From: an uncultured Acidobacteriota bacterium
GTDB lineage: Bacteria; Acidobacteriota; Terriglobia; Terriglobales; Acidobacteriaceae
Reading direction: 5' to 3'
DNA: 64,000 nucleotides
Assembly (NCBI GenBank): GCA_963808795.1
Contig: CAWEGL010000001.1
Span: forward strand, 127,381-191,380
The translations under genes and the position numbers were made by a program. How positions within the stretch are numbered: position 1 is the first letter of the stretch; each line of letters begins with the position of its first letter. This document shows positions 24,308 to 51,564 of this stretch, piece by piece. The notes beneath the pieces are model-generated. The model saw only the letters and a program-made list of their open reading frames with translations. It searched no databases and was not told the DNA's origin.

Positions 24308-26203
24308 ATGAGCGAGAGCGATCGAAAGCGCAAGGATGAGCGGCACGGCGGAGACGAGAAGCTGCGCATCGGCGTGTACATCTGCCGCTGCGGCGGAAAC
24401 ATCTCCGACGTGGTCGACGTGGAGCGCGTGGCGGAGACGGTGCGGTCGATACCCGGCGTGGCCACCGCGAAAGTGCACACCTTTGTCTGCTCCGACCCCG
24501 GCCAACAGACGATCTCGAACGACATCCTCGAGGAGAGTCTCGACCGCGTTGTTGTGGCCTCGTGCTCGCCCTTCCTGCACGAGCAGACCTTCCGCGGCGC
24601 CGTCTCGCGCGGCGGCATGAATCCTTATCTCTACGAGCACGTGAACATCCGCGAGCAGGCGTCGTGGGCGCACAAGCACGATCCGGCTGGCGCAACCGCC
24701 AAGGCCATCCGCCTGATCGCCGCGGCGGTAGGCAAGCTACGGCACGCCACGCCTCTCGAACAAATCAAGCTGCCCAATCACCGGCGCGCATTGGTCATCG
24801 GCGGAGGCATTGCGGGAATGAAAGCGGCTTCCGATTTGGCCGGGCGCGGAATTAAGGTGCTGCTGGTGGAAACTTCGCAGCGGCTTGGAGGGTGGGTCAA
24901 CGAGGTGGGCCGCATCTACCCCAGCGAGCGCTCCGCCGATGAGCTGGTCCGCGAGTTGGAGCGCCAGGTGCGTCAGAACCCCAACATTGAAGTCCTACTT
25001 GAAAGCAAAGTCGTCACGGTGAGCGGTTTCATCGGCAACTTCAAGGTTGCGGTGGAGTCTGTGCGCGGCGATGCGGTCGCGCCACGGGTCGAGCCGAGGG
25101 CCGAAGCGACGGTGGGCGCCATCGTGATGGCGACGGGCTTTCGTCCTTACGTGCCACGGGACGGCGAATTCCTGTATAAGGCCGACCGCCATGTGCTGAC
25201 CATGCCGGAGTTTATCCGCCACATGCGGACCGTGGACCCCGCTGCGCGCCGGCTCGCCTTTGGCAACTGCGAGATCCGCAAGATTGCGTTTCTCCACTGC
25301 GTGGGCAGCCGGCAACTGGACGGCGTTCACGAGCCGCCACCGGGCGGAAAGCTGAACACCTACTGCTCGCGCACATGCTGCACCACGATCCTGCAGCAGG
25401 CGCTTGCGGTGCGCAGGCAGTTTCCGCGGGTCGGCGTCTTCGACTTCCATCGCGACATCCGCAGCTACGGCCGCGGCGAAGAGAGCTATTACACCGAGGC
25501 AAGCAAGGCTGGCGTGGTCTTCTTCTGCTACAACGGCGAAGAGCCTCCGCGCGTGGAGAAAACCGCTCCGGATCGGGCGCGAGACGGCGCGCTCTCCGTC
25601 ACCGTGAAGGATGCGCTCACATGGGGCGAGGAACTCACCGTCCCCGTGGATCTGGTTGTGCTCGGCGTGGGGATGATGCCGGGGCCGATAGGGGACCTTA
25701 TCGAACAAATGAAGCTGCCAACGGGCGAGGACGGGTTCCTCCAGGAGGTCCATCCCAAGCTGCGGCCGGTGGAGATGTCTGTAAACGGCGTGCTGCTGGC
25801 GGGCACGGCGCAGGGGCCGATGAATATCCAGGAGACGCTAGCCGCCGCCGGGGCAGCGGCTGCGAAGGCCGCGGCGATGTTCGCCAAAAAGGACGTGGAG
25901 CTGAATCCGCATGTGGCCGTCGTGGACCTTGCGCTCTGCCGCGGCGAGGCGCAGTGCGTCACGCAGTGCGATTACGAGGGCGCGCTGAAGATGGTTTCGA
26001 TGGAATTGGATGGCGAAACCATCGCGCACGCGCAGGTGAATGCCGGGCTGTGCGTTGGCTGCGGCGCGTGCGTTGCCGTGTGCCCCCACCGCGCCATCGA
26101 CCTGAACGGCTGGCGCATTGACCAGTACGAGGCCATGGTCGACGGTATTGCGGCCGGGATTCCCGGCCAGGAATGCCCAGCCGATCTGGTGGCCATTCAC
26201 TAA
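24308..26203 (+). CDS. Second HdrA-like flavoprotein with N-terminal domain and C-terminal ferredoxin
   Basis: GVYICRCGGNI, ASCSP, NIREQ, GGGIAG, HCVGSR, YCSRTCC, CVGCGACVAVCP. Confidence 0.92.
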   Translation: MSESDRKRKDERHGGDEKLRIGVYICRCGGNISDVVDVERVAETVRSIPGVATAKVHTFVCSDPGQQTISNDILEESLDRVVVASCSPFLHEQTFRGAVSRGGMNPYLYEHVNIREQASWAHKHDPAGATAKAIRLIAAAVGKLRHATPLEQIKLPNHRRALVIGGGIAGMKAASDLAGRGIKVLLVETSQRLGGWVNEVGRIYPSERSADELVRELERQVRQNPNIEVLLESKVVTVSGFIGNFKVAVESVRGDAVAPRVEPRAEATVGAIVMATGFRPYVPRDGEFLYKADRHVLTMPEFIRHMRTVDPAARRLAFGNCEIRKIAFLHCVGSRQLDGVHEPPPGGKLNTYCSRTCCTTILQQALAVRRQFPRVGVFDFHRDIRSYGRGEESYYTEASKAGVVFFCYNGEEPPRVEKTAPDRARDGALSVTVKDALTWGEELTVPVDLVVLGVGMMPGPIGDLIEQMKLPTGEDGFLQEVHPKLRPVEMSVNGVLLAGTAQGPMNIQETLAAAGAAAAKAAAMFAKKDVELNPHVAVVDLALCRGEAQCVTQCDYEGALKMVSMELDGETIAHAQVNAGLCVGCGACVAVCPHRAIDLNGWRIDQYEAMVDGIAAGIPGQECPADLVAIH

Positions 26204-26223
26204 CGGCAGAGAGGAGACGAGCC

Positions 26224-26541
26224 ATGGCAATGAGGGCGCTGACTCAGGAGCAGAAAAAGGCGTTGGCCGCATTGCGCCAACGCATCGGCGGCATCGGCGA
26301 AGAGAAGCGCCAGGCGCAGCGGCATCTTATGACCGCGCGCAAGTCGATCCTGAAGTTTTTAGAGGCGAAGCCCGCAACCGTTCCGCAGATCGCCCGGGCG
26401 CTTGAGATGCCTGCCGATGAGGCGCTGTGGCATGTAACGGGAATGCGCAAGTACGGGAAGGTCATCGAGACCGGCGAAGACGGCGACTATCCGCTTTACG
26501 CGCCGGTCGTCTTTGAAGAACAGGCTGCGGCCGGGCACTGA
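26224..26541 (+). CDS. Small winged-helix-like protein
   Basis: ATVPQIARALEMP...WHVTGMRKYGKV; located inside the operon. Confidence 0.65.
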   Translation: MAMRALTQEQKKALAALRQRIGGIGEEKRQAQRHLMTARKSILKFLEAKPATVPQIARALEMPADEALWHVTGMRKYGKVIETGEDGDYPLYAPVVFEEQAAAGH

Positions 26542-26554
26542 GAGAAGGTTCGAC

Positions 26555-27727
26555 ATGGCGCGCATTGTGGATAGCTCGTTGTTGCGGAAGATCGAGCTGC
26601 ACGGAGCCGGGGGCGCTCTGGATGTGGGCGCCTGCTTCAACTGCGGGAACTGCACGGCGGTGTGCCCCCTGGCCGAGGATACGGGCGGCTTTCCGCGGCG
26701 CATGATCCGCATGGCCCAGGTGGGGATGGAACGCGAACTGCTGGCCGGCGAAGACTTGTGGCGCTGCTACGCATGCGGCGAGTGCACGCGCACCTGTCCG
26801 CGCCAGGCCGACCCGGCTGAATTCATGGCCGCCGCGCGCAGCTACGCCATCTCGCGTTACGACTTTACCGGGCTCGCAGGGCTGGTGAATCGCTCCGCAT
26901 TCGGCAATCTGCTCGTCTTCGCTCTCTTTTCCGTGATCTTTGAGTTTGTTCTCTCGATCGAAGCGAATCCCGTGGGACCGCAGGCCGCGCTCTTCGACTT
27001 TCTTCCAGGATGGTGGGTTCACTCGATTGGCGTGGCGCTCTTTGCGGTTGTGGGCCTCAGCATGATTTTCGGAATGGCCTCGATGTGCGCGCACTTCCGG
27101 GCCGTACGCTGCCGCGAAGGTTCGGCGATGCGGCTCGCGGCGTTTCCGGGCGCCGCGATTTCGGGCCTCCTCGACGCGCTGCTGCATAGGCGCTTCCGGC
27201 AGTGTACCTCGGCCCAAGACGCCGCGGATTCGCCTAAAGAGCCCATCCTTCTGCGCACGTGGTTCGTGCATGCAACAGTAATGGGCGGCTTTCTGGCCAT
27301 GCTGCTCGCCACCACCCTCGACTATCTCTTCAAGCCCATCGGCTCGCCGGTCCCGCCTTGGTATCCGGTGCGCCTGCTCGGCGCCGTGGGCGGCGTGGTG
27401 TGCCTCTACGGCCTCACCGTCGTTCTGGTGCGCCGTCTTCGAGCCCGGGACGTTCCCTGGCGCAAGAGCGCATTATCCGACTGGTTCTTTCCCTTGCTGC
27501 TTTACGCCACGGTGCTCACCGGACTGGCAACGGAGCTTGCCGTCTATCTGCCTTTGGGCACGCTTGGCCATGCGGTCTTCTTCGTCCACGTGGTGCTGGC
27601 CATGGACCTGATCGCAATGCTGCCGCTCACAAAGTTTGCTCATGTGCTCTACCGCACGCTGGCGCTGGTTTTGTTTTCATGGCAGCGCGCGTCGGTGCGG
27701 ATAACCGCGGCCGACGCGCAGGCTTAG
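26555..27727 (+). CDS. QmoC-like protein: HdrC-type 2x[4Fe-4S] plus a heme-b-type membrane domain
   Basis: CFNCGNCTAVCP and CYACGECTRTCP, then about 6 TM helices with His residues (FVHA, VHVV, FAHV). Confidence 0.85.
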   Translation: MARIVDSSLLRKIELHGAGGALDVGACFNCGNCTAVCPLAEDTGGFPRRMIRMAQVGMERELLAGEDLWRCYACGECTRTCPRQADPAEFMAAARSYAISRYDFTGLAGLVNRSAFGNLLVFALFSVIFEFVLSIEANPVGPQAALFDFLPGWWVHSIGVALFAVVGLSMIFGMASMCAHFRAVRCREGSAMRLAAFPGAAISGLLDALLHRRFRQCTSAQDAADSPKEPILLRTWFVHATVMGGFLAMLLATTLDYLFKPIGSPVPPWYPVRLLGAVGGVVCLYGLTVVLVRRLRARDVPWRKSALSDWFFPLLLYATVLTGLATELAVYLPLGTLGHAVFFVHVVLAMDLIAMLPLTKFAHVLYRTLALVLFSWQRASVRITAADAQA

Positions 27728-27765
27728 CGTCTCGATGTCCGTTTTCTTGAAAGGAGCTGAAAAAC

Positions 27766-28326
27766 ATGACCGAAACAGCAACCGCACCCGATCTGCAACA
27801 GGCGATCGAGCAGTTGACGGCGCGCGTCGATGCGCTTGAGCAATCCGCCGGCAACGGGAGGCTCTCCATCGGCGTGATGAGCGGCAACCTGGATACGACC
27901 ATGGCCGCGTTCATCATCGCGCTTGGCGCCGTGGCCTACGACCTGGAAGTGGATATGTTCTTTACCTTCTGGGCCACCGCGGCGCTGCGCGATCCGAAGA
28001 AGTCGCCGCACAAGGGATTTCTCGACAGAATGTTCGGCTGGATGCTGCCACGCAGCTCCTACGTCCTGCCGCTCTCCAAGATGCAAATGGCCGGCATCGG
28101 ACCCAGGATGATCCGCTCGGTGATGAAGTCGCGCGGCGTCAAGTCTCTCGAACAACTGATGAAGGATGCCGCCGAGTTCGGGGTTCGCATCCACGTCTGC
28201 GAGATGTCGATGGGCGTGATGGGGCTAAAGGAGGAGGAGATGATCGACTACCCCGGCATCGACTACGTGGGCGTAGGTTCGTTCATTCAGATGATCGGCG
28301 AATCGAAGCAGGTTGTGTTCCTATGA
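27766..28326 (+). CDS. DsrE/DsrF/DrsH-like sulfurtransferase
   Basis: MFFTFWA..ALR ... HVCEMSMGVMG. Confidence 0.88.
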   Translation: MTETATAPDLQQAIEQLTARVDALEQSAGNGRLSIGVMSGNLDTTMAAFIIALGAVAYDLEVDMFFTFWATAALRDPKKSPHKGFLDRMFGWMLPRSSYVLPLSKMQMAGIGPRMIRSVMKSRGVKSLEQLMKDAAEFGVRIHVCEMSMGVMGLKEEEMIDYPGIDYVGVGSFIQMIGESKQVVFL

Positions 28327-40622: not shown

Positions 40623-40662
40623 CGTGACGGCGATCACAGACCGTAGGTTGGCTATATGGCAA
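40623..40662. promoter_or_regulatory. CRP-type box plus a candidate ArsR operator
   Basis: CGTGA-CGGCGA-TCACA (40623-40638); imperfect palindrome TTGGCTATATGGCAA (40648-40662) just before arsR. Confidence 0.65.
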
Positions 40663-40691
40663 TGTGGTCAATAAGGAAACTTAGTGGCACG

Positions 40692-40985
40692 ATGGACAAA
40701 CGGAATCCCTTTATGAAACAGGCCAGGATGCTCAAGGCGTTGGCTCACGAGTCCCGCCTGATGATTGTGGACCGGCTGAGTCGCGGAGAATGCTCCGTTG
40801 GGGATCTTAGGGATCTCGTCGGCGGCGATCTGTCGACCGTTTCCAAACATCTGGCCCTGCTGCGTGCGCACGGGATCGTCGAGGACAGGCGTGAGGGCAC
40901 GACTGTGTACTACAGGTTGCTGACGCCCTGCGTGTGCAACTTCTTCACCTGCGCTACGCAGGTTCTCAAGGAAAGATCGAGGTAG
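40692..40985 (+). CDS. ArsR-family regulator with a C-terminal Cys cluster
   Basis: LKALAHESRL, STVSKHL, PCVCNFFTC. Confidence 0.9.
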   Translation: MDKRNPFMKQARMLKALAHESRLMIVDRLSRGECSVGDLRDLVGGDLSTVSKHLALLRAHGIVEDRREGTTVYYRLLTPCVCNFFTCATQVLKERSR

Positions 40986-40988
40986 ATC

Positions 40989-41234
40989 ATGCAGATCCAA
41001 ATATTGGGCACGGGCTGCAGTAAATGCGAGATGCTGACGGCGAACGCAGAGAAAGCGGTTCAGGAGCTTGGGTTGAATGCGGAGATCGAGAAGGTCACGG
41101 ACATTCAGGACATCATGAAGTTCCAGATTCTGATGACTCCCGGTTTGGTGATTGACGGAAAGGTCAAGACTGCAGGCCGCATACCACCTCCGGAAGAAAT
41201 CAAGAAGATGCTCCAGGAAGCGGGAGGTAATTAA
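40989..41234 (+). CDS. Small thioredoxin-like redox-active disulfide protein (MTH895/TM0996 type)
   Basis: ILGTGCSKC, MTPGLVIDG. Confidence 0.9.
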   Translation: MQIQILGTGCSKCEMLTANAEKAVQELGLNAEIEKVTDIQDIMKFQILMTPGLVIDGKVKTAGRIPPPEEIKKMLQEAGGN

Positions 41235-41612
41235 ATGGCTGACGAACGTCCTGGTTTGGTGATGTGTGTCTGCACCGGCAAGTGTCCCGGCTTCGAGAAG
41301 ATGGATATCTGGGATTTCATCAATCGGGCTCGCGTCGAACTGCCGGTCGAATTTGGCGTGATTCATCCGCAACTGTGCGAACAGGATGGAGACCGCTTCC
41401 TGGCCGATTTTCTTGAGGCCAAGCGGCCTCTGGTCATCGCGGCCTGCGCACCCAACATGCAGTTCAAGATGTTCCGCGATGCCTTTGCAGCGAAGGGGAT
41501 GGATGTGAAGCGGGACATGACTCCGCTGGACATCCGTGACATGACAACCGACGAGGCCGTCGAGAAGGTCGCTACAGCTCTCCGCGAAATGGGGGTAAAA
41601 GAAGATGTCTGA
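41235..41612 (+). CDS. Stand-alone homologue of the HdrA N-terminal domain
   Basis: MCVCTGKC..HPQLC..LVIAACAP..FR..DIR aligns by eye with ICRCGG..TFVC..VVVASCSP..FR..NIR of 24308..26203. Confidence 0.65.
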   Translation: MADERPGLVMCVCTGKCPGFEKMDIWDFINRARVELPVEFGVIHPQLCEQDGDRFLADFLEAKRPLVIAACAPNMQFKMFRDAFAAKGMDVKRDMTPLDIRDMTTDEAVEKVATALREMGVKEDV

Positions 41613-41892
41613 CACGACTTTCATGGGAGTGCCGCGAGATAAAATCCCGTGGTTTCCGACGATTGACTACAACAAATGCACTTTCTGTATGGAGTGCGAC
41701 ACCTTCTGTCCACACCACGTGTATGAGCGGCGGGATGGCGACCGGAAACTGGTGGTGGCGAACCCGAACAATTGCGTCGTGTTTTGCCGCGCCTGCTCGA
41801 AGACCTGCGGCCCGGAAGCTCTGTCGTTTCCCGACAAGACAGAAATTCTTGCCCAAATCAAGCAAATTCGCGCCGAGGAGAGTGTCAAATGA
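41605..41892 (+). CDS. 2x[4Fe-4S] ferredoxin
   Basis: CTFCMECDTFCP and CVVFCRACSKTC. Confidence 0.9.
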   Translation: MSDTTFMGVPRDKIPWFPTIDYNKCTFCMECDTFCPHHVYERRDGDRKLVVANPNNCVVFCRACSKTCGPEALSFPDKTEILAQIKQIRAEESVK

Positions 41893-42734
41893 CTCGCGCC
41901 ATTCTCGCCTGCAGCGGTCTGGACAAACCCGAAGGCTCGGTAGCGCGGGAAGTGGCAATCCGCGTCGCCGCGGCCACGGGCAGCGAAATCATTTGCCCGG
42001 TGCTGCTGAATCGGGCACCGGCGCGCTATAAGAAGGCGCTCGGTGAGAGCGCTCTGATCGTTGTCGATGGTTGCCCCACACGCTGTGCGAGCAAACTGGC
42101 AACCACCCTTCAGGCGACCGTAGATCGGAAGGTTCTGATTTCCGATGCCGTAAAGGCAACCGGCCGGTCGCTGAAGCCCGCGCTCACGCTCGCGCCGGAT
42201 GACCTTGCACTGACGCAGTCTATCGTCGATGAGCTGGTGCGCAACCTGAACACGCCCGCACCAGTTGAGGAGCTGGCGAGTGCATTCGAATCGCCAACCG
42301 AATACCTGGTCGTAACTCACGACAAGTTTGAATTCCGCATTCCCGCTGTGGACTACCTCTTCAATGAGAACGACGTCTGGGTCCGGGCACTGGACGGCGT
42401 TGCGCGCGTCGGTATCTCCGACTACATGCAGCAGAAGCTGACCGACATCAACTACTTCGATCCGCCGAAGACGGATGGATCCGTGGAACAGTTCGGTGAA
42501 CTGGGCACGCTCGAATCGGCCAAAGCTGTATTCGAGATCATTGCGCCGGGAAGCGGTTCCATCGTTGCCGTTAACCCGGCCGTCGTCGCCAATCCGGGAC
42601 TCATCAACGAAGATCCTTACGGCGCCGGCTGGCTTGTTGAACTGAAACTGACCGCCTGGCAGCAGGATGTCGAGTTGCTCCTGGACGGCGGCGCGTATGC
42701 GGATGTGGTCAAGCGCAAAGCAGCCGAGGATTGA
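41889..42734 (+). CDS. DGC-domain (putative Zn/Cys) protein fused to a GcvH-like lipoyl carrier
   Basis: N-terminal ACSG..ICP..VDGCPTRCA; C-terminal RVGISDY, LESAKAV (lipoyl Lys), NEDPYGAGWL. Confidence 0.88.
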   Translation: MTRAILACSGLDKPEGSVAREVAIRVAAATGSEIICPVLLNRAPARYKKALGESALIVVDGCPTRCASKLATTLQATVDRKVLISDAVKATGRSLKPALTLAPDDLALTQSIVDELVRNLNTPAPVEELASAFESPTEYLVVTHDKFEFRIPAVDYLFNENDVWVRALDGVARVGISDYMQQKLTDINYFDPPKTDGSVEQFGELGTLESAKAVFEIIAPGSGSIVAVNPAVVANPGLINEDPYGAGWLVELKLTAWQQDVELLLDGGAYADVVKRKAAED

Positions 42735-42747
42735 GAGGGTGAGCCGA

Positions 42748-43176
42748 ATGACGAACGACTTTCGAGAAAAGACGGTATTGGTGATCCCGTGCAGCGGGAT
42801 CGGAAAAGTCCACGGTTTGATTGGCCGCGAGGCGACCTACCAGGTGACAGAAGAGCTGGCGCCCCAACAGACCGAAACGATGTGTCTCGCGCTTCTCGTG
42901 AAAGGCGACACGGATGCGGTCGCCGCAGTGCAGACGCATCCCTGCATCACCATCGACGGCTGCGCCAAGGCCTGCGCGCAGAAGAATGTTGAGATGGCCC
43001 GCGGTCAGGTCGCGAAGGCAATTCAGGTGGCCGAAGCCTTCAGAAACTTTCGCGGTGCGAAGCCGGGCAGCGCCACGTCCCTGACAGAAGACGGATGGAA
43101 CATTACGCGGCACGTCGCCGGCGCCGTTGCTTGCGAGGCGAGCCGCGTAGCAGCGAGCGGGGAGACGATTCGATGA
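42748..43176 (+). CDS. DGC-domain protein
   Basis: IPCSG, MCL, IDGCAKACA. Confidence 0.88.
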   Translation: MTNDFREKTVLVIPCSGIGKVHGLIGREATYQVTEELAPQQTETMCLALLVKGDTDAVAAVQTHPCITIDGCAKACAQKNVEMARGQVAKAIQVAEAFRNFRGAKPGSATSLTEDGWNITRHVAGAVACEASRVAASGETIR

Positions 43177-43871
43177 GCGCGGACGTCACGAAGGTTGGCA
43201 TCATCTCGTGCAGCGGCGAGGCAATTCCGGAGGGCACGGTTTCGCGCCTCGCAACACGCAGGGTCCTGGAACTGCTGCGCCCGGATGTGACCGTCACGCT
43301 TTGTCTGCCGCTGTTTTTAGCGGGCAACGAAGGCGAGCGAAACTTTGCCCGGACCCATCCGACCATTACAGTGGATGGCTGCTCGAAGCAGTGCGCCAAG
43401 TGGGGCACCGAGAAGCACAGCAGCCCGGTAAGCAGCGCTCTGGTGGTATCGGAGATTCTGGGGAACGCGGGCGCCGCGTGTCATCGCTCCTGCCGCGAGG
43501 TATCGGAGACAGACCTGGAAGCAGTTTGGGCCGTTGCCGAGCGCATCGCTGCCGAAGTGGATGCGGTCCTGGCGACGGACGCCCCGCGCGACGCGGCAGC
43601 AAAAACCAGCAAGGGCCAGTGCGCCTGCTCCAGCCCGATTCCTGGAGGAACCGTCACGGTCAGGGAAACGAATGTGACCATACCCGGTCTGACCTTGATC
43701 TTTGCGCAATGCGCAGAGCGCGGCATTCCGGCCGAAGGCGGAGATGGCGCGGCGTTAATCGATGCCGTCAGAATCTATCACGCGATCGGCCCGGAAGATG
43801 AGGCAGAATATCGAGCCGCTCTTATCGAGGCATATCGAAAGTTCCGGAGCGGAATGAGCGGAGGAAAATGA
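43173..43871 (+). CDS. DGC-domain protein with an extra C-terminal domain (CxC)
   Basis: ISCSG, LCL, VDGCSKQCA; CHRSC; QCACSS. Confidence 0.85.
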   Translation: MSADVTKVGIISCSGEAIPEGTVSRLATRRVLELLRPDVTVTLCLPLFLAGNEGERNFARTHPTITVDGCSKQCAKWGTEKHSSPVSSALVVSEILGNAGAACHRSCREVSETDLEAVWAVAERIAAEVDAVLATDAPRDAAAKTSKGQCACSSPIPGGTVTVRETNVTIPGLTLIFAQCAERGIPAEGGDGAALIDAVRIYHAIGPEDEAEYRAALIEAYRKFRSGMSGGK

Positions 43872-44620
43872 TGGACGTCCTCTGTTGGTCAGCTCCAAGT
43901 GTCGCCGAGAATCTCGCCCTCGATGTGGAGTTGGCGAAATCGGCCTGGTCGACGGGTCGGCGACTCGTTCGCTTCTGGTGGGGCGATGGGCCTGCGGTCG
44001 TGATGGGATCGAGCGAGCGGCCCGAGGATGTAGTGGACGCGTCCGCCTGCGAAGCGTTTGGCGTTGCGGTTCTCAAACGATGCAGCGGAGGAGGCACGGT
44101 ACTCCAGACCAGCGGAGTGCTGAACTACTCGCTGATTACCCCGGCACCCGGCGATCTCAACGTGGGAGCGTCCTTTCGCCACGGCACAAATCTGATCTGC
44201 GCAATTCTTGCCGGCCTTGGGGTAACAGGCGTACCGCAGGGCACCTCGGATGTAACCGTTGGAAACTGCAAGATCTCAGGCAACGCGCAGGCCCGGCGCT
44301 GGAAGGCGCTGCTGGTGCACGGCACGCTGCTGGTGGATTTTGATTTTGCCCTGGCGGAGAGGGCTCTACTTCATCCGCCACGCGAGCCGGAGTATCGCCG
44401 GGGACGGAACCATCGCGACTTTCTGGTGACCCTGGGTGCTCTGGGCGTTCATGCAAGCCGCATTGAGATCGAGAAGGCGGCGATTCATGCTGCGGGGGAA
44501 CTCTTCGGCGGCGCGAGCCTGCGACCGGGTTCCACCGCTTCGCACCTCCCGGCGCCTGTCATTCCGTCGGCGTCAAGCATCCAGCCGGAAATCTTCGAGG
44601 CTCAGGAACGTCAGCCTTAG
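43868..44620 (+). CDS. Lipoate-protein ligase (BPL/LplA catalytic domain only)
   Basis: ENLALD, KRCSGGGTV, KISGNAQ, LVHGTLL. Confidence 0.9.
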   Translation: MMDVLCWSAPSVAENLALDVELAKSAWSTGRRLVRFWWGDGPAVVMGSSERPEDVVDASACEAFGVAVLKRCSGGGTVLQTSGVLNYSLITPAPGDLNVGASFRHGTNLICAILAGLGVTGVPQGTSDVTVGNCKISGNAQARRWKALLVHGTLLVDFDFALAERALLHPPREPEYRRGRNHRDFLVTLGALGVHASRIEIEKAAIHAAGELFGGASLRPGSTASHLPAPVIPSASSIQPEIFEAQERQP

Positions 44621-44655
44621 GAGAATTTTTGCATTGTGAATGAGAGGAGATATTC

Positions 44656-45030
44656 GTGAATTCTGAACAGAAACCCACCGTGGATCAAGTCTTCGGTATG
44701 ATGCGCAAAACCATGGGGTCAATCCCATCCGCGATTGAGAAGGCGACCTCCGTCGATGAAGGGCTGCTCTATGAGCATCTGCGTTCGAGAGCCTACGCAA
44801 TGCCTGCGGAGGGGGCTCTCGATGAAGAGACGCGCACCCTGATCTATCTTGCGTCGGCGCTTGCTGGCAGCAGCAAGGCGTGCATTCAAGCAATGGCTAA
44901 CAAGGCGAAGATGCAGGGCATCGCGCCGGAAAAAGTGTTGGAGACGGTACGCATTGTGCGGTTCGCACTGGCGACCAAGGTCGTCGGGGATGCGGAGCCG
45001 GTTTTCGAGGCGCTGCGAAGCGTCGAGTGA
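44656..45030 (+). CDS. CMD/AhpD-like protein with one Cys
   Basis: GALDEETRTLIYLASALA..SKAC..A...G...E...E. Confidence 0.7.
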   Translation: MNSEQKPTVDQVFGMMRKTMGSIPSAIEKATSVDEGLLYEHLRSRAYAMPAEGALDEETRTLIYLASALAGSSKACIQAMANKAKMQGIAPEKVLETVRIVRFALATKVVGDAEPVFEALRSVE

Positions 45031-45081: not shown

Positions 45082-46485
45082 ATGACAGTGTTCTCGATCA
45101 GAAGCATCTTCTACAACTCGTCCAGAACGAAGAACTCCATTCTGCTCAGGCGTTTTTCCTCGGCGCTCTCACTTGTCTTACTGTTGATCTTGTGGAGCGC
45201 GACACTCGCCGCGGCGCAAACGGCCGGGGAGGATCTCGAAACAGCCTATCAGCAAGCGGCTAGTTCTTCTCCGCTGATTGCCCAGGCCCGCGCACAACTG
45301 GATGCGGATCTGGCGGGTAAACCTCTGGCGCGCTCGGCGTTGCTTCCCCATGTCAACGCGGCTGCCAGCGGCGGCATGAATACGGGACGCGTGACGGGTT
45401 TCGGCGCTCAGACAATTTCTACTGGCTACCACTCCGATACATTCAGCGCCAGCTTGACAGAGTCGCTCTTCGATGGCCAGAGTCTCATTGCCATGAGGCA
45501 GGCGGACAGCCGGATTCAGTCGAGTGAGGCAGCCTTGGCGTACGTGCAGCAGGTCGTTGCACTGGAGGTCACGCAGGCTTACTTCGGCGTTCTGCAAGCG
45601 CAAGCGAACGAGCGGGTCGCGCAGCAGCAGGTTGAGTTGTTGCAAAGCATCTATGGCCAGACAAATGCCAGCCTTAAGGTTGGGACGGGAGACATCATCT
45701 CTGTCCAGGAGGCGCGTGCACAACTGGATGCTGCAAATGCCGATCTGATCACGGCGAAGAATGCGGTCGCGGTGGCACAGAGCCAGTTGGAACGTCTCAC
45801 GCATCATCCGGTTGGGGTCCTGCAGGACGTAACGACTTTGCAGGCAATTGGTCCCCAGCCGGATACCGTGGATGCCTGGGTCGCTGCCGCCCTTAAGAAC
45901 CAGCCGCTCCTGCGACAGGCCAGGGCGACCCTGCACGTTTCCGTACAACAGGTCCAGTATGCAGAGCGAGCACGCTGGCCAACCCTGACCCTGAGCGGAG
46001 TCGGACAGCACGCTGCGGGCACATTGATACCGCCGGTTGCTATTGACCAGGTCGGCGCTTCACTCAACCTTTCGATTCCGATCTTTGAGGGTGGACACAC
46101 GCGGGCAAGCATTCATCAGGCCCAGGCACTCGCGCGAGCGAGCAAAGAGAACCTCGCGAATGCGCAGGATCAGATCACATTGGATACGCAAACCGCATTC
46201 CTTGATCTCGAGAACAGTGTTGCTCAGTACCGGGCCGCCGAGCAGTCGGTCACTTCCGCGAAGGTATCGCTCGATGGCACCCGCAAAGGCTATGAAATCG
46301 GGAGCCGGTCGATCATCGATCTGCTGACAGCGACGACGAACTACGCGGCAGCGCAGCGCACCTACTATCTGGCTCTCTATACGCAACTGGTAGCGAGAAC
46401 ACAGCTCAAGGCGGCAGCGGGGGTATTGACACCTCTGGATATTGAAGACATCAATTCGCTGCTCGATGGCAACACCTCCAAGTGA
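45082..46485 (+). CDS. TolC-family outer membrane protein
   Basis: Signal peptide; GTGD..SV.EA and GYEIGSRSIIDLL repeats. Confidence 0.9.
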   Translation: MTVFSIRSIFYNSSRTKNSILLRRFSSALSLVLLLILWSATLAAAQTAGEDLETAYQQAASSSPLIAQARAQLDADLAGKPLARSALLPHVNAAASGGMNTGRVTGFGAQTISTGYHSDTFSASLTESLFDGQSLIAMRQADSRIQSSEAALAYVQQVVALEVTQAYFGVLQAQANERVAQQQVELLQSIYGQTNASLKVGTGDIISVQEARAQLDAANADLITAKNAVAVAQSQLERLTHHPVGVLQDVTTLQAIGPQPDTVDAWVAAALKNQPLLRQARATLHVSVQQVQYAERARWPTLTLSGVGQHAAGTLIPPVAIDQVGASLNLSIPIFEGGHTRASIHQAQALARASKENLANAQDQITLDTQTAFLDLENSVAQYRAAEQSVTSAKVSLDGTRKGYEIGSRSIIDLLTATTNYAAAQRTYYLALYTQLVARTQLKAAAGVLTPLDIEDINSLLDGNTSK

Positions 46486-46516
46486 GTACGAACGCGGGTT
46501 GATTGGGAGATTCTCC

Positions 46517-47599
46517 ATGATTTCGGTCAGGAAGCGCATTTCGATTCTGGCAATTGTGATCCTTCTTGCTGCGGGTTTCTTCGTCTGGCGCAGGCTCCAG
46601 CAGAAGGGCGCGGCCAGCGACAGCATCACGCTTTATGGCAACGTCGACATCCGCCAGGTGCAAGTCGCCTTTAATGACAGTGAGCGCATCGACAAACTGC
46701 TGGTGGATGAAGGCAGCGCGGTGCACGCCGGGCAGTTGATTGGCCAGCTGGTTCAGCAGCGCATTTCCGATGCCGTCGCACAGGACCAAGCAGTCGTCGC
46801 TGCGCAACAGCAGGTGGTTGCAAGGCTGCGGGCTGGGAGCCGTCCGGAGGAAGTCGCAGAGGCGCGCGCCGATGTGGCTGCCGCGCAAGCGAACGTGGCC
46901 GCCGCTCAGGCCAATGTGAAGAATGCCGAGCTGCTTTACCACCGTCAGCAAACCCTGGCGAAACAGCAATACGTCTCCCTGCAAATTCGCGACGATGCCG
47001 AACGCGCGTATCTGGCCCAGCAGGCCGACCTGACAGCCAGGCAACAGATACTGGCTGCCCAACAGCAGGCCTTGCAACTCGCCGTCATCGGCCCTCGCAA
47101 AGAGGACATCGCCGCAGCGGAAGCCACACTCCAGGCAGATATCGCAGCGTTAGCTCTGGCGCAAAAGCAGCTGGCCGATACGCAGCTCTATGCTCCTTCA
47201 GAAGGTGTCATTCAGAATCGAATTCTGGAGCCGGGCGATATGGCCACTCCACAAACGCCGGTGTTTACGCTGGCCCTCGACAATCCTCTCTGGGTGCGTG
47301 CCTACCTGCCCGAACCGCAGATGGGCAAGGTGGCTCTTGGCATGCGTGCGTGGATCGAGTCGGACAGCTTCCCCGGCCAGCGTTTTCCTGGATGGATCGG
47401 CTTCATCTCTCCGGTATCGGAGTTTACGCCAAAGAACGTCGAGACCACGGAGCTGCGCTCGCAGCTTGTCTATCGCGTGCGCGTCTATGCCTGCAACCCC
47501 GACCATCGCCTGCGTCTGGGCATGCCGGCAACGGTCATCATCCCGCTTAGCAACAATCCTGCCCACGGAATCGATGCCCATCCTTGCGAGGGAAAGTGA
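46517..47599 (+). CDS. HlyD-family adaptor (YbhG-like)
   Basis: TLYGNVDIR, SEFTPKNVET..LR..LVYRVR. Confidence 0.9.
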   Translation: MISVRKRISILAIVILLAAGFFVWRRLQQKGAASDSITLYGNVDIRQVQVAFNDSERIDKLLVDEGSAVHAGQLIGQLVQQRISDAVAQDQAVVAAQQQVVARLRAGSRPEEVAEARADVAAAQANVAAAQANVKNAELLYHRQQTLAKQQYVSLQIRDDAERAYLAQQADLTARQQILAAQQQALQLAVIGPRKEDIAAAEATLQADIAALALAQKQLADTQLYAPSEGVIQNRILEPGDMATPQTPVFTLALDNPLWVRAYLPEPQMGKVALGMRAWIESDSFPGQRFPGWIGFISPVSEFTPKNVETTELRSQLVYRVRVYACNPDHRLRLGMPATVIIPLSNNPAHGIDAHPCEGK

Positions 47600-47600
47600 G

Positions 47601-49334
47601 ATGGGGGCCGTCGTCGTAAGCAATCTGCGCAAGTCCTTCGGTAAAGGAGCGGGGCGCACAGAGGCGCTCAGGAATATCTCCTTCGAGATTTCGCAGGGGA
47701 GCATGACGGCGCTGATCGGTCCGGACGGTGCGGGGAAGACCACGCTGCTGCGGCTGCTGGCCGGCATCCTGGAGCCCAACTCCGGCGATCTTCGCGTACT
47801 CGGGCACGCGTTGCCGCGCGAGGTGCTGCAACTGCAGGCCAGGATCGGCTATATGCCGCAGCGCTTCGGGCTCTATGAAAGCCTCACGGTCGAAGAGAAT
47901 CTCGTGCTGTTCGCTGACCTGCACAACGTGCCGCAAGACGCGCGCGCGGCCCGCTTCGATGAGTTGCTCACTATGACGGCGCTCGGGCCCTTTCGCACGC
48001 GCCGCGCAGGGCAGTTATCCGGCGGCATGAAACAGAAACTCGGCCTCGCCTGTACCTTGATCCACCCTCCCGAACTGTTGCTCCTGGATGAAGCCAGCGT
48101 AGGCGTAGACCCCATTTCGCGGCGGGAACTGTGGAGCATCATCCAGCAGCAGGTCGTCGGCCAGCAGGTGACTGTTCTGCTGAGTACGGCTTATATGGAT
48201 GAAGCCGAGCGCTGCGATCACGTCATCCTCTTACACGAGGGGGAGATTCTCGCACAGGGGAGTCCCTCGCAACTCATCGCGCCCATGGAGGGCCACTCCT
48301 TCCTTCTGGAGGAAATCTCCACTGGCCCGCGCAATCTTCAGTCTCAGATCGCCCGGTTGCCGGGTGTGGTCGATACGGCGATCCAGGGTGACGGACTGCG
48401 CATCGTGATGGAAAAGGTTGAAGCGCCACCCTTACCCGCGAGTCTGGCTGTCCACGGTCTCTTGAAGCCGGTTGCGGCCCGGCTGGAAGATGCGTTCGTC
48501 AGTCTGCTCTTCAAGCGAACTTCGCATCATTCCATCCCGCTGCCTCCGCACCGGAATTCGGCAGGCGATGATGCCGCCGTTGTCGAGGTCAAGGGTCTTT
48601 CCCGTTATTTCGGCGCCTTCGCTGCGGTGAAGGATGTCAGTTTCTCTGTGCGCAGAGGAGAGATATTTGGGCTGCTCGGAGCCAACGGCGCCGGAAAGTC
48701 CACAACGTTCCGGATGCTCTGCGGCCTGCTTCCAGCCTCATCGGGAACGCTGAGGGTCGCAGGCGCAGATCTACGCACGGGTGCCGCGGCAGCGCGGGCA
48801 CGCATTGGATATGTGTCGCAGAAGTTCTCTCTTTATGGGGCTTTAAGTGTCCAGCAGAATCTGACTTTCTTCGCCAATGTCTATGGCCTTGAGAACCGCC
48901 GCAAAGGAGACCGAATCGCGTGGGCGCTCGATGAACTCGAACTGAAAGAATACATCGCCATGAACGCCGCGGAGTTGCCCCTGGGATACAAACAGCGCCT
49001 TGCGCTGGCCTGCGCGTTGATGCATGAGCCGAGCATTCTCTTTCTCGATGAGCCGACCTCCGGCGTCGATCCCTTGGCGCGCCGTGAATTCTGGGCGCGC
49101 GTGAATGCACTCGCGGAGGGTGGGACAACCTGTCTGGTGACCACTCACTTCATGGAAGAGGCGGAATACTGCGACCGTTTGGTCCTGATGTCACTGGGAG
49201 AAGTGCTTGCAGAAGGAACGCCCGCAGAGATCAAGACAAGGGTCCGCAGTGCAGACTATCCCAAACCGAGCATGGAAGATGCCTTCATCTCTCTGATTGA
49301 GGAACATGAGCGCGTGAGCCGGAGGGCCTCATGA
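47601..49334 (+). CDS. Dual-ATPase ABC subunit (YbhF-like)
   Basis: GPDGAGKT/LSGGMKQ and GANGAGKS/LPLGYKQ. Confidence 0.93.
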   Translation: MGAVVVSNLRKSFGKGAGRTEALRNISFEISQGSMTALIGPDGAGKTTLLRLLAGILEPNSGDLRVLGHALPREVLQLQARIGYMPQRFGLYESLTVEENLVLFADLHNVPQDARAARFDELLTMTALGPFRTRRAGQLSGGMKQKLGLACTLIHPPELLLLDEASVGVDPISRRELWSIIQQQVVGQQVTVLLSTAYMDEAERCDHVILLHEGEILAQGSPSQLIAPMEGHSFLLEEISTGPRNLQSQIARLPGVVDTAIQGDGLRIVMEKVEAPPLPASLAVHGLLKPVAARLEDAFVSLLFKRTSHHSIPLPPHRNSAGDDAAVVEVKGLSRYFGAFAAVKDVSFSVRRGEIFGLLGANGAGKSTTFRMLCGLLPASSGTLRVAGADLRTGAAAARARIGYVSQKFSLYGALSVQQNLTFFANVYGLENRRKGDRIAWALDELELKEYIAMNAAELPLGYKQRLALACALMHEPSILFLDEPTSGVDPLARREFWARVNALAEGGTTCLVTTHFMEEAEYCDRLVLMSLGEVLAEGTPAEIKTRVRSADYPKPSMEDAFISLIEEHERVSRRAS

Positions 49335-50446
49335 ACTGGATGCGTATAAAGGGTTTGATGCGGAAGGAGGTCTATGAAATACTCCGCGATCCTTCCAGCA
49401 TCGCCATTGCGTTCGTGCTGCCCCTGGTGCTTCTGTTGATCTTCGGGTACGGCGTCTCACTCGACGCTCGAAGTATCTCCATTGCGGAGGTTGTTGACCA
49501 GCCAACGCATCTCACAGCATCTTTCCTCGCGGAGTTGCAACGCAATCAGTGGTTTCACCCGATCCTCTATCCGGATCAGGCATCTGCGGAGCAGGCATTG
49601 TTGCATGGCCGAGCCGAAGCCATTCTTTGGCTGCGCAGCGATTTTTCCCAGATCGCCTTGAGTAGCGGGAGCGCTCCGATTCATCTTACCGTGAACGGCG
49701 TCGATGCCAATCAGGCTCGCATCATTCAGAACTACATCAGTGGAACATGGCAAGTTTGGCTTCAGCAGGAGGCGACAGCACAGGGTGGGCATCTCGCAGC
49801 GCCCGTGGTAGCGGATACGCGAGTGTGGTTCAACCCTGCGCTCGCCAGCCGTGACTATCTGATTCCCGGACTGATCGCCATCATCATGACGCTCATCGGA
49901 GGGTTGTTGACAGCACTGGTTGTAGCCAGAGAGTGGGAGCGCGGCACGATGGAAGGCATTATGGTTACGCCCGTCGCCAAAACAGAAATTCTGCTGGGAA
50001 AGCTGGTCCCATATTTTGTCATGGGGATGGGCGGAATGATGATGTCCACTGCGATGGCGGTCTTCCTGTTTCATGTGCCGCTGCGTGGCTCGTTCGCGGT
50101 GCTCTTTGGTACTGCCGCACTCTTCCTGCTCACCGCCCTGGGCATGGGATTGGCGATCTCCGTCCTGGCGCGCAGCCAGTTCGTCGCCGCCATGGTGGCC
50201 ATTGTTACCACGTTCCTTCCTGCGTTCATTCTGTCGGGATTCCTGTTCGACATTCGTTCCATGCCGCAAGTCATTCAGGTTCTGACCCACATCGTGGCAG
50301 CCCGCTACTTCGTGACCATGCTGCAAACTACCTTTCTGGCGGGCGACATGTGGTCCGTCCTTTTGCCCAATGCGCTGGGATTGGCCATCCTCTGTGTGCT
50401 CTTTCTGGGCCTCTCCGTATTGCGGTTTCGTAAGAGGTTGGACTGA
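49331..50446 (+). CDS. ABC-2 permease (YbhS-like)
   Basis: AREWERGTME..VTP; LSGFLF..MP. Confidence 0.92.
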   Translation: MNWMRIKGLMRKEVYEILRDPSSIAIAFVLPLVLLLIFGYGVSLDARSISIAEVVDQPTHLTASFLAELQRNQWFHPILYPDQASAEQALLHGRAEAILWLRSDFSQIALSSGSAPIHLTVNGVDANQARIIQNYISGTWQVWLQQEATAQGGHLAAPVVADTRVWFNPALASRDYLIPGLIAIIMTLIGGLLTALVVAREWERGTMEGIMVTPVAKTEILLGKLVPYFVMGMGGMMMSTAMAVFLFHVPLRGSFAVLFGTAALFLLTALGMGLAISVLARSQFVAAMVAIVTTFLPAFILSGFLFDIRSMPQVIQVLTHIVAARYFVTMLQTTFLAGDMWSVLLPNALGLAILCVLFLGLSVLRFRKRLD

Positions 50447-51564
50447 TGCGGGCGATTCTCCAACGCGTATTCGCGCTCGCCGTTAAGGAGCTTCTGGCAC
50501 TGTTGCGCGATCCGGCAAGCCGAGCCGTCCTGATCGGCCCGCCGATCATTCAACTGTTGGTTTTTGGCTATGCGGCAACATTCGATCTCACACATGTTCC
50601 CTTTGTTGTCTACAACCAGGACCAGGGACAAGCCTCGCGCGAGCTCATCGCTCGTTTTGCCGGCGCGCCCAGCTTCGATCTGCTGCGCCCGGTTCACAAT
50701 CAAAAGGAGCTGGAGCAGGCCATTGACGACCAGTCTGCGCTCATGGCCATGGACATTGGCCCCAACTTTAGTGCCGATCTGGAACGAGGACAAACTGCGC
50801 ACATCCAACTCATTCTGGACGGCAGAGACTCGAATACGGCCGCACTTGCAATGGGCTACGCGCAATCCATCGTAGCCCGGTTCAATGAAGCGGAAATCGT
50901 GCAGCACGGAATGAAACCACCTCCAGCGGTACTTCTGGATCGCGCATGGTTCAATCCAAATCTCGACTCACGCTGGTTTATTGTCCCCGGCATCTGCGGC
51001 ATCCTCACTCTGCTGGTAAGTATGCTGACGACGGGGCTTTCGGTGGCGCGCGAGCGTGAGATGGGGACCTTTGACCAGCTTCTCGTAACCCCAATGCCTC
51101 CGACGGAGATTCTGGTAGGGAAAACTCTGCCCGGCTTTCTGGTTGGTACGGCCGAAGGCTCTCTCATCATTTTCATGGCGATATTTTGGTTTCACGTTCC
51201 ATTCACCGGAAGCCTCTTGGGTCTCTACATCGGTTTGCTCTGCTTCTTGGTTTCAACGTTGGGCATAGGATTGATGTTCTCGTCTTTAGCTGTCACACAG
51301 CAGCAAGGGCTGTTAGGCGTCTTTCTCTTCCTGGTGCCGGCCATTGTTCTCTCCGGTTTCGCAACTCCGATTGCCAATATGCCACAAGCAGTGCAGTACA
51401 TCACGCTCCTTGATCCGCTGCGATATTTCCTGATCGTTCTGCGTGGCAGCTTTCTGGAAGGCGGGGGGGCATCCCTGTTCTGGCCGCAATATTGGCCATT
51501 GCTCGTGATTGGACTGGCCAGCATGACCGTGGCTGCCAGCCTTTTCCGCCGTCGGCTTTCCTGA
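50446..51564 (+). CDS. ABC-2 permease (YbhR-like)
   Basis: AREREMGTFDQLLVTP; LSGFATPIANMP. Confidence 0.92.
   Translation: MRAILQRVFALAVKELLALLRDPASRAVLIGPPIIQLLVFGYAATFDLTHVPFVVYNQDQGQASRELIARFAGAPSFDLLRPVHNQKELEQAIDDQSALMAMDIGPNFSADLERGQTAHIQLILDGRDSNTAALAMGYAQSIVARFNEAEIVQHGMKPPPAVLLDRAWFNPNLDSRWFIVPGICGILTLLVSMLTTGLSVAREREMGTFDQLLVTPMPPTEILVGKTLPGFLVGTAEGSLIIFMAIFWFHVPFTGSLLGLYIGLLCFLVSTLGIGLMFSSLAVTQQQGLLGVFLFLVPAIVLSGFATPIANMPQAVQYITLLDPLRYFLIVLRGSFLEGGGASLFWPQYWPLLVIGLASMTVAASLFRRRLS

Follow-up and report, generated by a model that had tools for sequence, protein, structure and literature searches.

A nine-gene operon headed by an ArsR-family regulator gene looks like a lipoic-acid-dependent part of arsenic detoxification that has not been described before. 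It lies at positions 40692–45030 on the plus strand of the window, i.e., the 64,000-nucleotide stretch analyzed here (assembly GCA_963808795.1, contig CAWEGL010000001.1, positions 127,381–191,380), and belongs to an Acidobacteriota (Terriglobia) soil bacterium whose closest genome locus (L001) is 96% identical at the protein level. Behind arsR follow the genes for an ArsE-type thioredoxin-like protein, a small protein termed P3, a ferredoxin (Fdx), a DGC domain fused to a GcvH-type lipoyl domain (DGC-GcvH), two further DGC proteins (DGC2 and DGC3), an LplA/LipM-type protein (Lpl) and a CMD/AhpD-like protein (CMD). P3, Fdx, DGC-GcvH, DGC2 and DGC3, the core, can securely be regarded as a functional unit, and it is well supported that the module belongs to the arsenic-resistance gene repertoire. 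As to what the operon does, we tentatively favor an arsenic-regulated thiol redox relay, built on lipoyl and Fe-S groups, that would feed arsenic-handling steps. An earlier reading made from the letters alone (the sequence-only reading) had supposed that no characterized system contains such a fusion, and full-text literature searches likewise found neither the DGC-GcvH fusion nor the P3 family nor a lipoyl protein in ars operons described.

A search of species-representative genomes with the fusion yielded 54 loci; a search with P3 found homologues in 308 genomes, from which 74 further loci were fetched. Neighbors in these 128 loci were counted within 10 kb in the fusion-found set and within 6 kb in the P3-found set, and paired counts below refer to the two sets in that order. 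The gene order P3-Fdx-DGC-GcvH-DGC2-DGC3 is kept in 54/54 fusion-found loci, and 71 of the 74 P3-found loci carry the fusion and both DGC paralogues with the core order preserved, two of the three exceptions being contig ends. The five-gene arrangement is therefore not due to chance, and its completeness in both sets makes the core an obligate unit; the expectation that the gene set would be found together in other genomes is thus confirmed by the synteny survey. Carriers belong to the Acidobacteriota, Actinomycetota (Thermoleophilia, Gaiellales), Planctomycetota, Verrucomicrobiota, Armatimonadota and Bacillota, the last including Lachnospiraceae, Oscillospiraceae, Fusibacter sp. 3D3 (L051), Lacrimispora sp. 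38-1, Clostridium boliviensis and Paraclostridium. Two copies of the whole module are present on different contigs in Lacrimispora sp. 38-1 (L037, L038) and in the Acidobacteria metagenome-assembled genome WY4.bin103 (L015, L021). Peat, paddy-like and mine-drainage soils are rich in carriers.

The genes around the core tie it to arsenic. Neighboring open reading frames (ORFs) were clustered and the cluster representatives named with NCBIfam. A strict ars gene (ACR3, ArsM, ArsC, ArsD or ArsA) is found within 10 kb in 24/54 loci, and in 18/34 among loci at least 15 kb long; within 6 kb the count is 42 of the 74 P3-found loci, set against a chance expectation that we estimate at about 1%. The representatives of ACR3 (389 versus a cut-off of 283 bits), ArsM (290 versus 263), ArsD (129 versus 90), ArsA (785 versus 650), ArsF (97.7 versus 60) and the CcdA-like ArsG (262 versus 200) score above the family cut-offs, a thioredoxin-type ArsC is the best match of its cluster below the cut-off, and ArsP is identified by PF03773. 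ArsR adjoins the core in 48/54 loci, and in Actinomycetota the genes run ACR3-ArsM-P3-Fdx-DGC-GcvH-DGC2-DGC3-ArsR. Module-linked ArsRs of other phyla carry the ELCVC motif for As(III), whereas the Acidobacterial type has ECSVG together with PCVCNFFTC. With these regulators and with eight kinds of ars gene recurring across phyla, the metalloid link proposed earlier is supported. An arsR-arsP-arsE-DGC operon was annotated independently in P. mercurii ND132 (10.1101/2022.10.17.512643). Such operons of anaerobes resemble the module in placing a PF08859 DGC protein and a PF13192 ArsE under ArsR; they differ from it in having a single DGC and no lipoyl domain, P3, ferredoxin, Lpl or dihydrolipoyl dehydrogenase (Lpd) (10.1101/2022.10.17.512643).

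Transporters are the commonest neighbors (ACR3 and ArsP, and in Acidobacteriota TolC/HlyD pumps), which fits a reading in which the operon captures arsenicals. Dihydrolipoamide is a classic high-affinity ligand of As(III) and MAs(III). In the manner of ArsD, the dihydrolipoyl arm and the Cys4 sites of the DGC proteins would bind As(III)/MAs(III) tightly, shield the housekeeping lipoyl enzymes and hand the arsenical on to ArsM, ACR3, ArsP or the efflux pump encoded downstream; Lpd and P3/Fdx would merely keep the dithiol reduced. The established chemistry of dihydrolipoamide, the presence of three paralogous Cys-rich proteins in each operon and the pairing of DGC with ArsP and ArsE in the simpler ars operon agree with such a role. 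However, it is not obvious why a stoichiometric binder would need three [4Fe-4S] clusters, conservation is highest in P3 and Fdx, the four conserved Cys of each DGC domain are better suited to Zn or Fe-S than to As(III) with its three-fold coordination, and embedded CcdA/thioredoxin pairs point to electron export. We consider capture rather unlikely to be the main function.

The lipoyl domain of the fusion is of the GcvH type. Residues 148–281 align with 13 solved GcvH proteins (E to 6.7e-20) over the full H-protein length, and K212 in the ESAK motif (codon 42522–42524) coincides with their lipoyl Lys; the lipoyl-domain fold and the E-S-x-K motif of GcvH are both present, and the Lys noticed earlier is indeed kept. 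The DGC and GcvH-type domains are joined by a conserved linker, hDKFEFRIP. A word-indexed search returned 708 homologues of the fusion and an exhaustive HMMER scan about 30 full-length representatives at 50% clustering; none of the fusion and P3 homologues bears an informative name, and JGI calls the fusion family 'glycine cleavage system H protein'. This name and the full-length alignment with canonical H proteins would accord with a housekeeping role, i.e., a spare glycine-cleavage H protein or a GcvH-type lipoyl-relay donor for E2 subunits. However, the fusion falls below both GcvH equivalog cut-offs (TIGR00527, 86.8 versus 115.85 bits; NF002270, 104.8 versus 117), never adjoins gcvT, gcvP, lipA or E2 genes, and always has its GcvH domain joined to DGC and is locked to P3, Fdx, DGC2, DGC3 and ArsR. 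Neither gcvT/gcvP nor E1/E2 genes recur as neighbors in the 128 loci, which together with the sub-cut-off scores places the GcvH domain outside glycine cleavage, as had been surmised; a housekeeping function is hardly credible. In the window, GcvP, GcvT and 2-oxoacid dehydrogenase are absent from the other large ORFs examined, and this part of an earlier statement, which also covered GcvL and the sHdr core, holds.

Attachment of the lipoyl group would fall to the Lpl-type protein, whose gene stands beside the core in 33/54 and 38/74 loci. Its PF21948 match is confined to residues 12–174, and K135 in KISGNAQ aligns with the KVSGNAQ of solved LplA catalytic domains. The earlier label 'lipoate ligase' is thus borne out with respect to catalytic domain and Lys motif but is over-specific as a ligase assignment, TIGR00545 scoring 89 bits versus a cut-off of 280. 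The protein lacks the C-terminal accessory domain of LplA and no LplB-like gene is present in the operon; judged by its sequence, it may be a ligase that needs a partner or a LipM/LipL-like transferase. From the kept Lys, the dedicated attachment enzyme and, in anaerobes, a dedicated E3, we infer that the core uses a protein-bound lipoyl group, in agreement with the dedicated lipoyl system proposed earlier.

All three DGC proteins match PF08859 well above threshold (55–60 bits versus a cut-off of 27) and show the hallmarks of the family, a domain of ~100 residues with four conserved Cys, that of the D-G-C motif among them. The DGC domain of the fusion has exactly four Cys, all conserved (C8, C36, C62, C66), and columns of this type are invariant or nearly so in a 70-sequence DGC alignment; the DGC3 domain has C13, C44, C70 and C74, and conserved Cys of DGC2 in the 54-locus comparison are C15, C46, C66, C72 and C76. 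The three domains are paralogous (hhalign, DGC2 against the fusion DGC, E 7.6e-27; DGC2 against DGC3, E 1.5e-54). In the AlphaFold2 (AF2) model of the fusion, usable for residues 1–125 only (pLDDT ~75–90, the GcvH part being below 50), the four Cys are located at the C-terminal ends of strands 1–3 and at the start of the next helix, where they may hold a metal or an Fe-S cluster. That DGC domains pass a substrate to the tethered lipoyl arm, as suggested by the sequence-only reading, is speculative. DGC3 continues into a C-terminal extension of ~85 residues (~43605–43868) with a CxC motif (C150, C152) and the conserved pattern GL.LIF...LLD.VKIYH..P..E.EY..AL. The extension, which has no Pfam match, is shared by Acidobacteriota, two Verrucomicrobiota/unclassified loci and one Gaiellales locus but not by Bacillota; a word-indexed search returned one homologue only.

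P3 is the best-conserved gene of the module, with 64–95% identity across phyla and 50 invariant columns in 40 sequences; a word-indexed search returned 1346 homologues, and identity is 73–94% among the matches listed. It has no Pfam or NCBIfam match. The AF2 model (pLDDT 82.6) finds its best Foldseek matches in the HdrA N-terminal domain (7bkb_A, E 5.5e-6, TMq 0.64), with six HdrA chains, including 5odc_A and 8rvy_A, at E 5.5e-6 to 7.8e-5 and probability 1.00, and an MvhD-type chain, 7bkb_F, at probability 0.85. By phmmer, P3 aligns to HdrA residues 7–95 (E 0.047), and the four cluster Cys of HdrA fall on C11, C13, C48 and C71. P3 accordingly has the flavodoxin-like fold of HdrA-N/MvhD with the cluster Cys at the ends of strands 1–3, and the earlier guess of an HdrA-N domain was right; P3 is predicted to hold a [4Fe-4S] cluster. 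The HdrA N-terminal domain is an electron-entry Fe-S module. Compared with HdrA (7bkb, 5odc, 8rvy), P3 stands alone, without flavin or ferredoxin domains, and contains one more invariant Cys, C17, in addition to these four; its conservation far exceeds that of HdrA-N, and it always occurs together with the ferredoxin and three DGC proteins. DGC also puts its Cys at the ends of strands 1–3; this is an analogy only, and homology between P3 and DGC is rejected at the sequence level (hhalign probability ≤0.5%).

The ferredoxin, whose gene is present in all loci surveyed, has eight Cys in two motifs (C25xxC28xxC31xxxC35P and C57xxxC61xxC64xxxC68), and its best matches, weak and below cut-off, are HgcB-like (C-terminus of NF043039, E 4.8e-10; HgcB, E 3.2e-8). 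We infer an Fe-S electron-transfer element in the core, and P3, the ferredoxin and the three Cys4 DGC proteins probably form one complex. P3 and Fdx had been taken for a peripheral electron-supply pair; instead, no other part of the invariant core is as well conserved.

A further proposal is that the core is itself a new enzyme complex, in which the lipoyl arm would couple the two-electron chemistry of NADH/Lpd to the one-electron [4Fe-4S] chain of P3/Fdx at the Cys4 sites of DGC and arsenicals or arsenical–protein adducts would be reduced directly; we regard this as possible, though on the unlikely side. If true, it would represent a new cofactor logic for arsenic metabolism, and the complex would be a candidate MAs(V)/DMAs(V) reductase, an anaerobic reductant system for ArsM, or the basis of ArrAB-independent arsenate metabolism in Fusibacter. 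Another reading, a new cytoplasmic arsenical reductase that replaces or supplements ArsC, would have the DGC/P3 core as active site and the lipoyl arm (NADH/Lpd) and ferredoxin as donors; candidate substrates are As(V), MAs(V)/DMAs(V) and thio- or nitro-aromatic arsenicals, and even further reduction is conceivable. Many ACR3-ArsM-core operons have no ArsC nearby; only 7/16 and 7/23 of the ACR3-bearing loci contain one. P3 is conserved so strongly that it suggests a site that is catalytic or serves several partners, and its fifth invariant Cys, next to the predicted cluster (CxCxxxC), is reminiscent of disulfide or substrate chemistry assisted by a cluster. Moreover, Fusibacter sp. 3D3, a carrier of the module, can grow on arsenate although it has no ArrAB, and a route linked to ferredoxin was proposed for it (PMC9751042). 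On the other hand, at least five proteins are uneconomical for a job done by the 130-residue ArsC, some loci contain both the module and ArsC, a substrate-binding motif is not known, and with flanks of only 6–10 kb ArsC may lie farther off. We find an ArsC-like role for the core doubtful.

The relay reading draws also on the genes that accompany the core. An ArsE-type gene lies beside it in 43/54 and 55/74 loci. In Bacillota, a bona fide dihydrolipoyl dehydrogenase (TIGR01350, 508 versus 409 bits) is encoded directly upstream of P3 in 12/14 loci, which strengthens the earlier idea of a redox-cycled lipoyl arm. CcdA/ArsG, a thiol-disulfide transporter of the membrane, together with an N-terminally anchored, extracytoplasmic thioredoxin-like protein is found with the core in 20/54 and 26/74 loci, and in one locus (L055) this pair is inside the operon, between DGC3 and Lpl. 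The ArsE-family protein of the window scores 107.3 bits with TIGR00412 (cut-off 62) and 95.9 bits with PF13192, and has an N-terminal CxxC, C10-S-K-C13, as befits its family.

In the relay as we propose it, one DGC protein would bear a GcvH-type lipoyl swinging arm, with the cofactor placed on K212 by the adjacent LplA-type enzyme, and the arm would alternate between disulfide and dithiol. Reduction by NADH would proceed via dihydrolipoyl dehydrogenase, encoded in the operon in Bacillota and presumably supplied by the housekeeping E3 in this Acidobacterium; at the DGC/P3 site the arm would exchange electrons with the one-electron cluster chain of P3 and Fdx. Reducing equivalents would then pass to thiol-disulfide partners, mainly the thioredoxin-like ArsE, and from ArsE to the catalytic disulfide of ArsM or, where present, via CcdA/ArsG to extracytoplasmic thioredoxins of the ArsF type, the AhpD-like protein being a possible further partner in the present operon. 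The net result would be a dedicated supply of reductant for arsenical methylation, reduction and export.

There is precedent for parts of this scheme. In M. tuberculosis, Lpd, the lipoyl protein DlaT, AhpD and AhpC reportedly form an NADH peroxidase, a relay driven by NADH from lipoyl to a thioredoxin-like protein, a finding attributed to Bryk et al. (2002). As there, a protein-bound lipoyl arm reduced by Lpd would, outside central metabolism, act as reductant for a small protein of thioredoxin-like or AhpD type; the operon has both a lipoyl carrier and an AhpD-family gene, to which the Bacillota versions add Lpd. However, the M. tuberculosis carrier is a moonlighting E2 and that of the operon a dedicated GcvH domain fused to DGC, the operon lacks AhpC, CMD has one Cys in place of CxxC, the context is arsenic and not peroxide, and the M. 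tuberculosis relay has no counterpart of the three predicted Fe-S clusters and three DGC proteins. The ArsEFG system of Shewanella putrefaciens, said to have been described by Chen, Zhang and Rosen in 2019, shares parts with the module (TIGR00412, NF040494, NF040495): the second gene of the operon is of the ArsE family, and ArsF/ArsG are by or in the module in 20–26 loci. As described, ArsEFG has no lipoyl protein, DGC, P3 or ferredoxin, and ArsF and ArsG are missing from the window, which thus holds no ArsEFG system; the module may be an upstream electron supply for systems of this type.

Several observations weigh against a relay. The window itself is devoid of ACR3, ArsM, ArsC, ArsD, ArsA, ArsP, ArsF and ArsG, tblastn detected no Lpd homologue in it, and in about half of the loci the flank is free of strict ars genes. 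The regulator of the window does not have the classic CVC site, so its effector in this organism is uncertain, and ATP-dependent ligation is not assured for an Lpl protein without accessory domain. DGC is annotated as zinc-binding, and no solved relative was found: Foldseek against the PDB gave generic Rossmann-like sandwich matches only (best E 0.04), a 70-sequence profile against PDB sequences gave none, and phmmer with DGC2 gave nothing meaningful. P3 and Fdx are universal, whereas Lpd, ArsE and CcdA are not, so that the essential chemistry may sit in the Fe-S/DGC core, and it is for these universal parts that a simple relay to ArsE offers the poorest account. The dihydrolipoyl group is moreover a prime target of As(III), which makes a relay under arsenic stress counter-intuitive and favors capture. 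The functional claims are, finally, drawn from gene context.

A GcvH-like lipoate-binding protein outside glycine cleavage is known from sulfur metabolism, where LbpA of the sHdr system occurs with sLpl(AB), LipS1 and LipS2 (PMC6067878, PMC10332631). There, too, the gene of the lipoyl carrier is accompanied by those of a dedicated attachment enzyme and of Hdr-related Fe-S proteins; the logic common to the module, Lpd-DlaT-AhpD and sHdr-LbpA is a lipoyl carrier outside 2-oxoacid and glycine metabolism, with a ligase of its own in sHdr as well. Unlike sHdr-LbpA, the operon has no sHdrA flavoprotein, sHdrB/C CCG proteins, radical-SAM LipS1/S2 or sulfur carriers; its only Hdr-related element is an isolated homologue of the HdrA N-terminal domain, and its neighbors are ars genes. 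LbpA is a single-domain protein encoded with shdrC1B1AHC2B2, sLpl(AB) and LipS1/S2, whereas the GcvH domain of the operon is fused to DGC, and a two-domain sLpl is missing from the operon and from related loci. The LbpA precedent (PMC6067878) nevertheless gives a basis for a role in sulfane-sulfur or persulfide handling, with the ArsR-family regulator as a persulfide or sulfite sensor; the ArsR shows weak similarity to BigR (61 versus a cut-off of 155 bits), and genes for SQR, DsrC/TusE-like, DsrE2-like and HdrA/QmoC-like proteins are present elsewhere in the window. However, sHdr B/C, TusA, DsrE3, rhodanese, LipS1/S2 and sLpl(AB) are not recurrent neighbors in the 128 loci, the sulfur genes of the window are not syntenic with the module elsewhere, and ars genes are the neighbors that do recur. 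Sulfur handling, offered by the sequence-only reading as an alternative, thus gains no synteny support, and we hold it to be very improbable.

The Hdr/Qmo/Dsr/SQR genes lie 4–16 kb upstream of the operon, and for these the statement that the window contains no sHdr core genes needs qualification: HdrA-like and QmoC-like genes are present, none of them being sHdr B/C. An HdrA-like Fe-S flavoprotein of 631 residues (24308–26203, plus strand) is followed by a small HTH protein and by a QmoC-like membrane Fe-S protein (26513–27727, plus strand; NF038018, 202 bits, below cut-off), and a DsrE2-like protein belongs to the same cluster (24308–28326), which looks like a Qmo/Hdr-like electron module. 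A second cluster (34059–36808, plus strand) encodes a type III sulfide:quinone reductase (NF049943, 629 versus 525 bits, an uninterrupted full ORF), a DsrC/TusE-family protein (35996–36313) and a DsrE2-like carrier (36338–36808). Between this cluster and the operon, 1.5 kb upstream of the latter and divergently transcribed, are an HgcAB-like fusion (NF043039, 430.8 versus 285 bits; corrinoid cap-helix-like motif NVWCGAAG) and its methyltransferase partner CpaM (NF043040, 260 versus 180 bits), at 37342–39161 on the minus strand. The pair was rejected as a part of the module, near which it was found in one locus (L004) besides the window; it is of interest in the light of a proposed link between HgcAB and arsenic (10.1101/2022.10.17.512643).

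The module is widespread, invariant in its parts and unstudied, and it bears on open questions in anaerobic arsenic metabolism. Lipoyl dithiols are textbook victims of arsenite, and a dedicated lipoylated protein in ars operons of at least six phyla would invert this picture; the protein is accompanied by a dedicated attachment enzyme, in anaerobes by a dedicated E3, and by an invariant set of Fe-S partners. The context also places two uncharacterized families, P3, which has no Pfam entry, and DGC. The module is a candidate for the re-reduction of ArsM/ArsE in anaerobes, for the reduction of pentavalent methylarsenicals and for the gain that some Firmicutes draw from arsenate without ArrAB. 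These questions are directly testable because cultured carriers exist (Fusibacter sp. 3D3, Lacrimispora sp. 38-1, Clostridium boliviensis E-1), and arsenic speciation in the soils of carriers matters for food safety.

Table 1 Genes of the operon and of the efflux pump that follows it (positions in the window)
Feature	Position	Strand	Basis
ArsR/SmtB metalloregulator, 97 aa	40692–40985	+	NF033788, PF12840/PF01022
MTH895/ArsE thioredoxin-like protein, 81 aa	40989–41234	+	TIGR00412, PF13192
P3, 125 aa, HdrA N-terminal/MvhD-like fold	41235–41612	+	AF2/Foldseek, phmmer
Ferredoxin, 95 aa, two cluster motifs	41605–41892	+	PF13237 and other Fer4 families
DGC-GcvH fusion, 281 aa	41889–42734	+	PF08859 60 bits, PF01597 97.6 bits
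DGC2, stand-alone DGC domain, 142 aa	42748–43176	+	PF08859 56.4 bits
DGC3, DGC domain with C-terminal extension	43173–43871	+	PF08859 55.1 bits
LplA/LipM-type lipoyl(octanoyl) transferase, catalytic domain only, 250 aa	43868–44620	+	PF21948 120 bits
CMD/AhpD-like protein, 124 aa, GTG start	44656–45030	+	PF02627 36.3 bits (cut-off 23)
TolC-like outer-membrane protein	45082–46485	+	ORF reading
HlyD-type adaptor	~46517–47599	+	ORF reading
Double ABC ATPase	47601–49334	+	ORF reading
ABC-2 permease	49331–50446	+	ORF reading
ABC-2 permease	50446–51564	+	ORF reading

The gene content of the operon was confirmed by ORF listing and by Pfam and NCBIfam profile searches, and the earlier calls for all nine genes proved correct (Table 1). 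Intergenic spacing from arsR to the CMD gene is +3, 0, −8, −4, +13, −4, −4 and +35 nt, and a purine-rich ribosome-binding site precedes each of the nine start codons; with these short gaps and overlaps, the genes constitute a single translationally coupled operon. The window ArsR (NF033788, 84.7 versus a cut-off of 55 bits) starts at the ATG at 40692, as backed by an alignment of 48 module-linked ArsRs, an alternative ATG being at 40656; its Cys are C34, the one Cys of ECSVG, and the C-terminal cluster C80/C82/C87 of PCVCNFFTC. CMD has a single Cys (C76) and thus no CxxC active site of AhpD oxidoreductases, and matches weakly the AhpD domain of ArsM-AhpD fusions and an arsenosugar-associated peroxidase-like family. 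Its gene is present in 14/54 fusion-found loci, every one of them in Acidobacteriota (82–96% identity), and is an accessory specific to this phylum.

About 330 nt of apparently non-coding DNA precede arsR, in which no promoter, operator or Rfam element was recognized; no inverted repeat was found upstream of arsR, no Rfam element in the window, and no excess of sigma-70 promoters or terminators. Between the HgcAB-like/CpaM pair and arsR are a gene for an ECF-type sigma factor (39392–39964, plus strand) and a possible small ORF (region to 40355). A 318-residue antisense ORF (40668–41624, minus strand) overlaps arsR, arsE and P3 and is treated as a shadow ORF and not as a gene; similar antisense ORFs recur in related loci of high GC content, where they beat short real genes in naive longest-ORF calling. 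A tblastn search of PLSDB with P3 gave no match and hence no sign of plasmid carriage. The operon itself was found in DNA soil metagenomes only, and the sole RNA match is a 167-nt contig of one mine-drainage metatranscriptome (run X17) that covers 41734–41901, the junction of ferredoxin and fusion, at 95–99% identity; this single contig indicates no more than that a close relative is transcribed.

The efflux pump encoded at 45082–51564 begins 51 nt past the CMD gene, is read from its sequence as YbhGFSR-like and is possibly co-transcribed with the operon. In Acidobacteriota, where a tripartite efflux pump is the usual sequel, a HlyD-type gene follows the module in 18/30 loci and a TolC-type gene in 16/30, as part of ABC or RND pumps, and the recurrence of either kind of pump at the same place suggests export of a product across both membranes.

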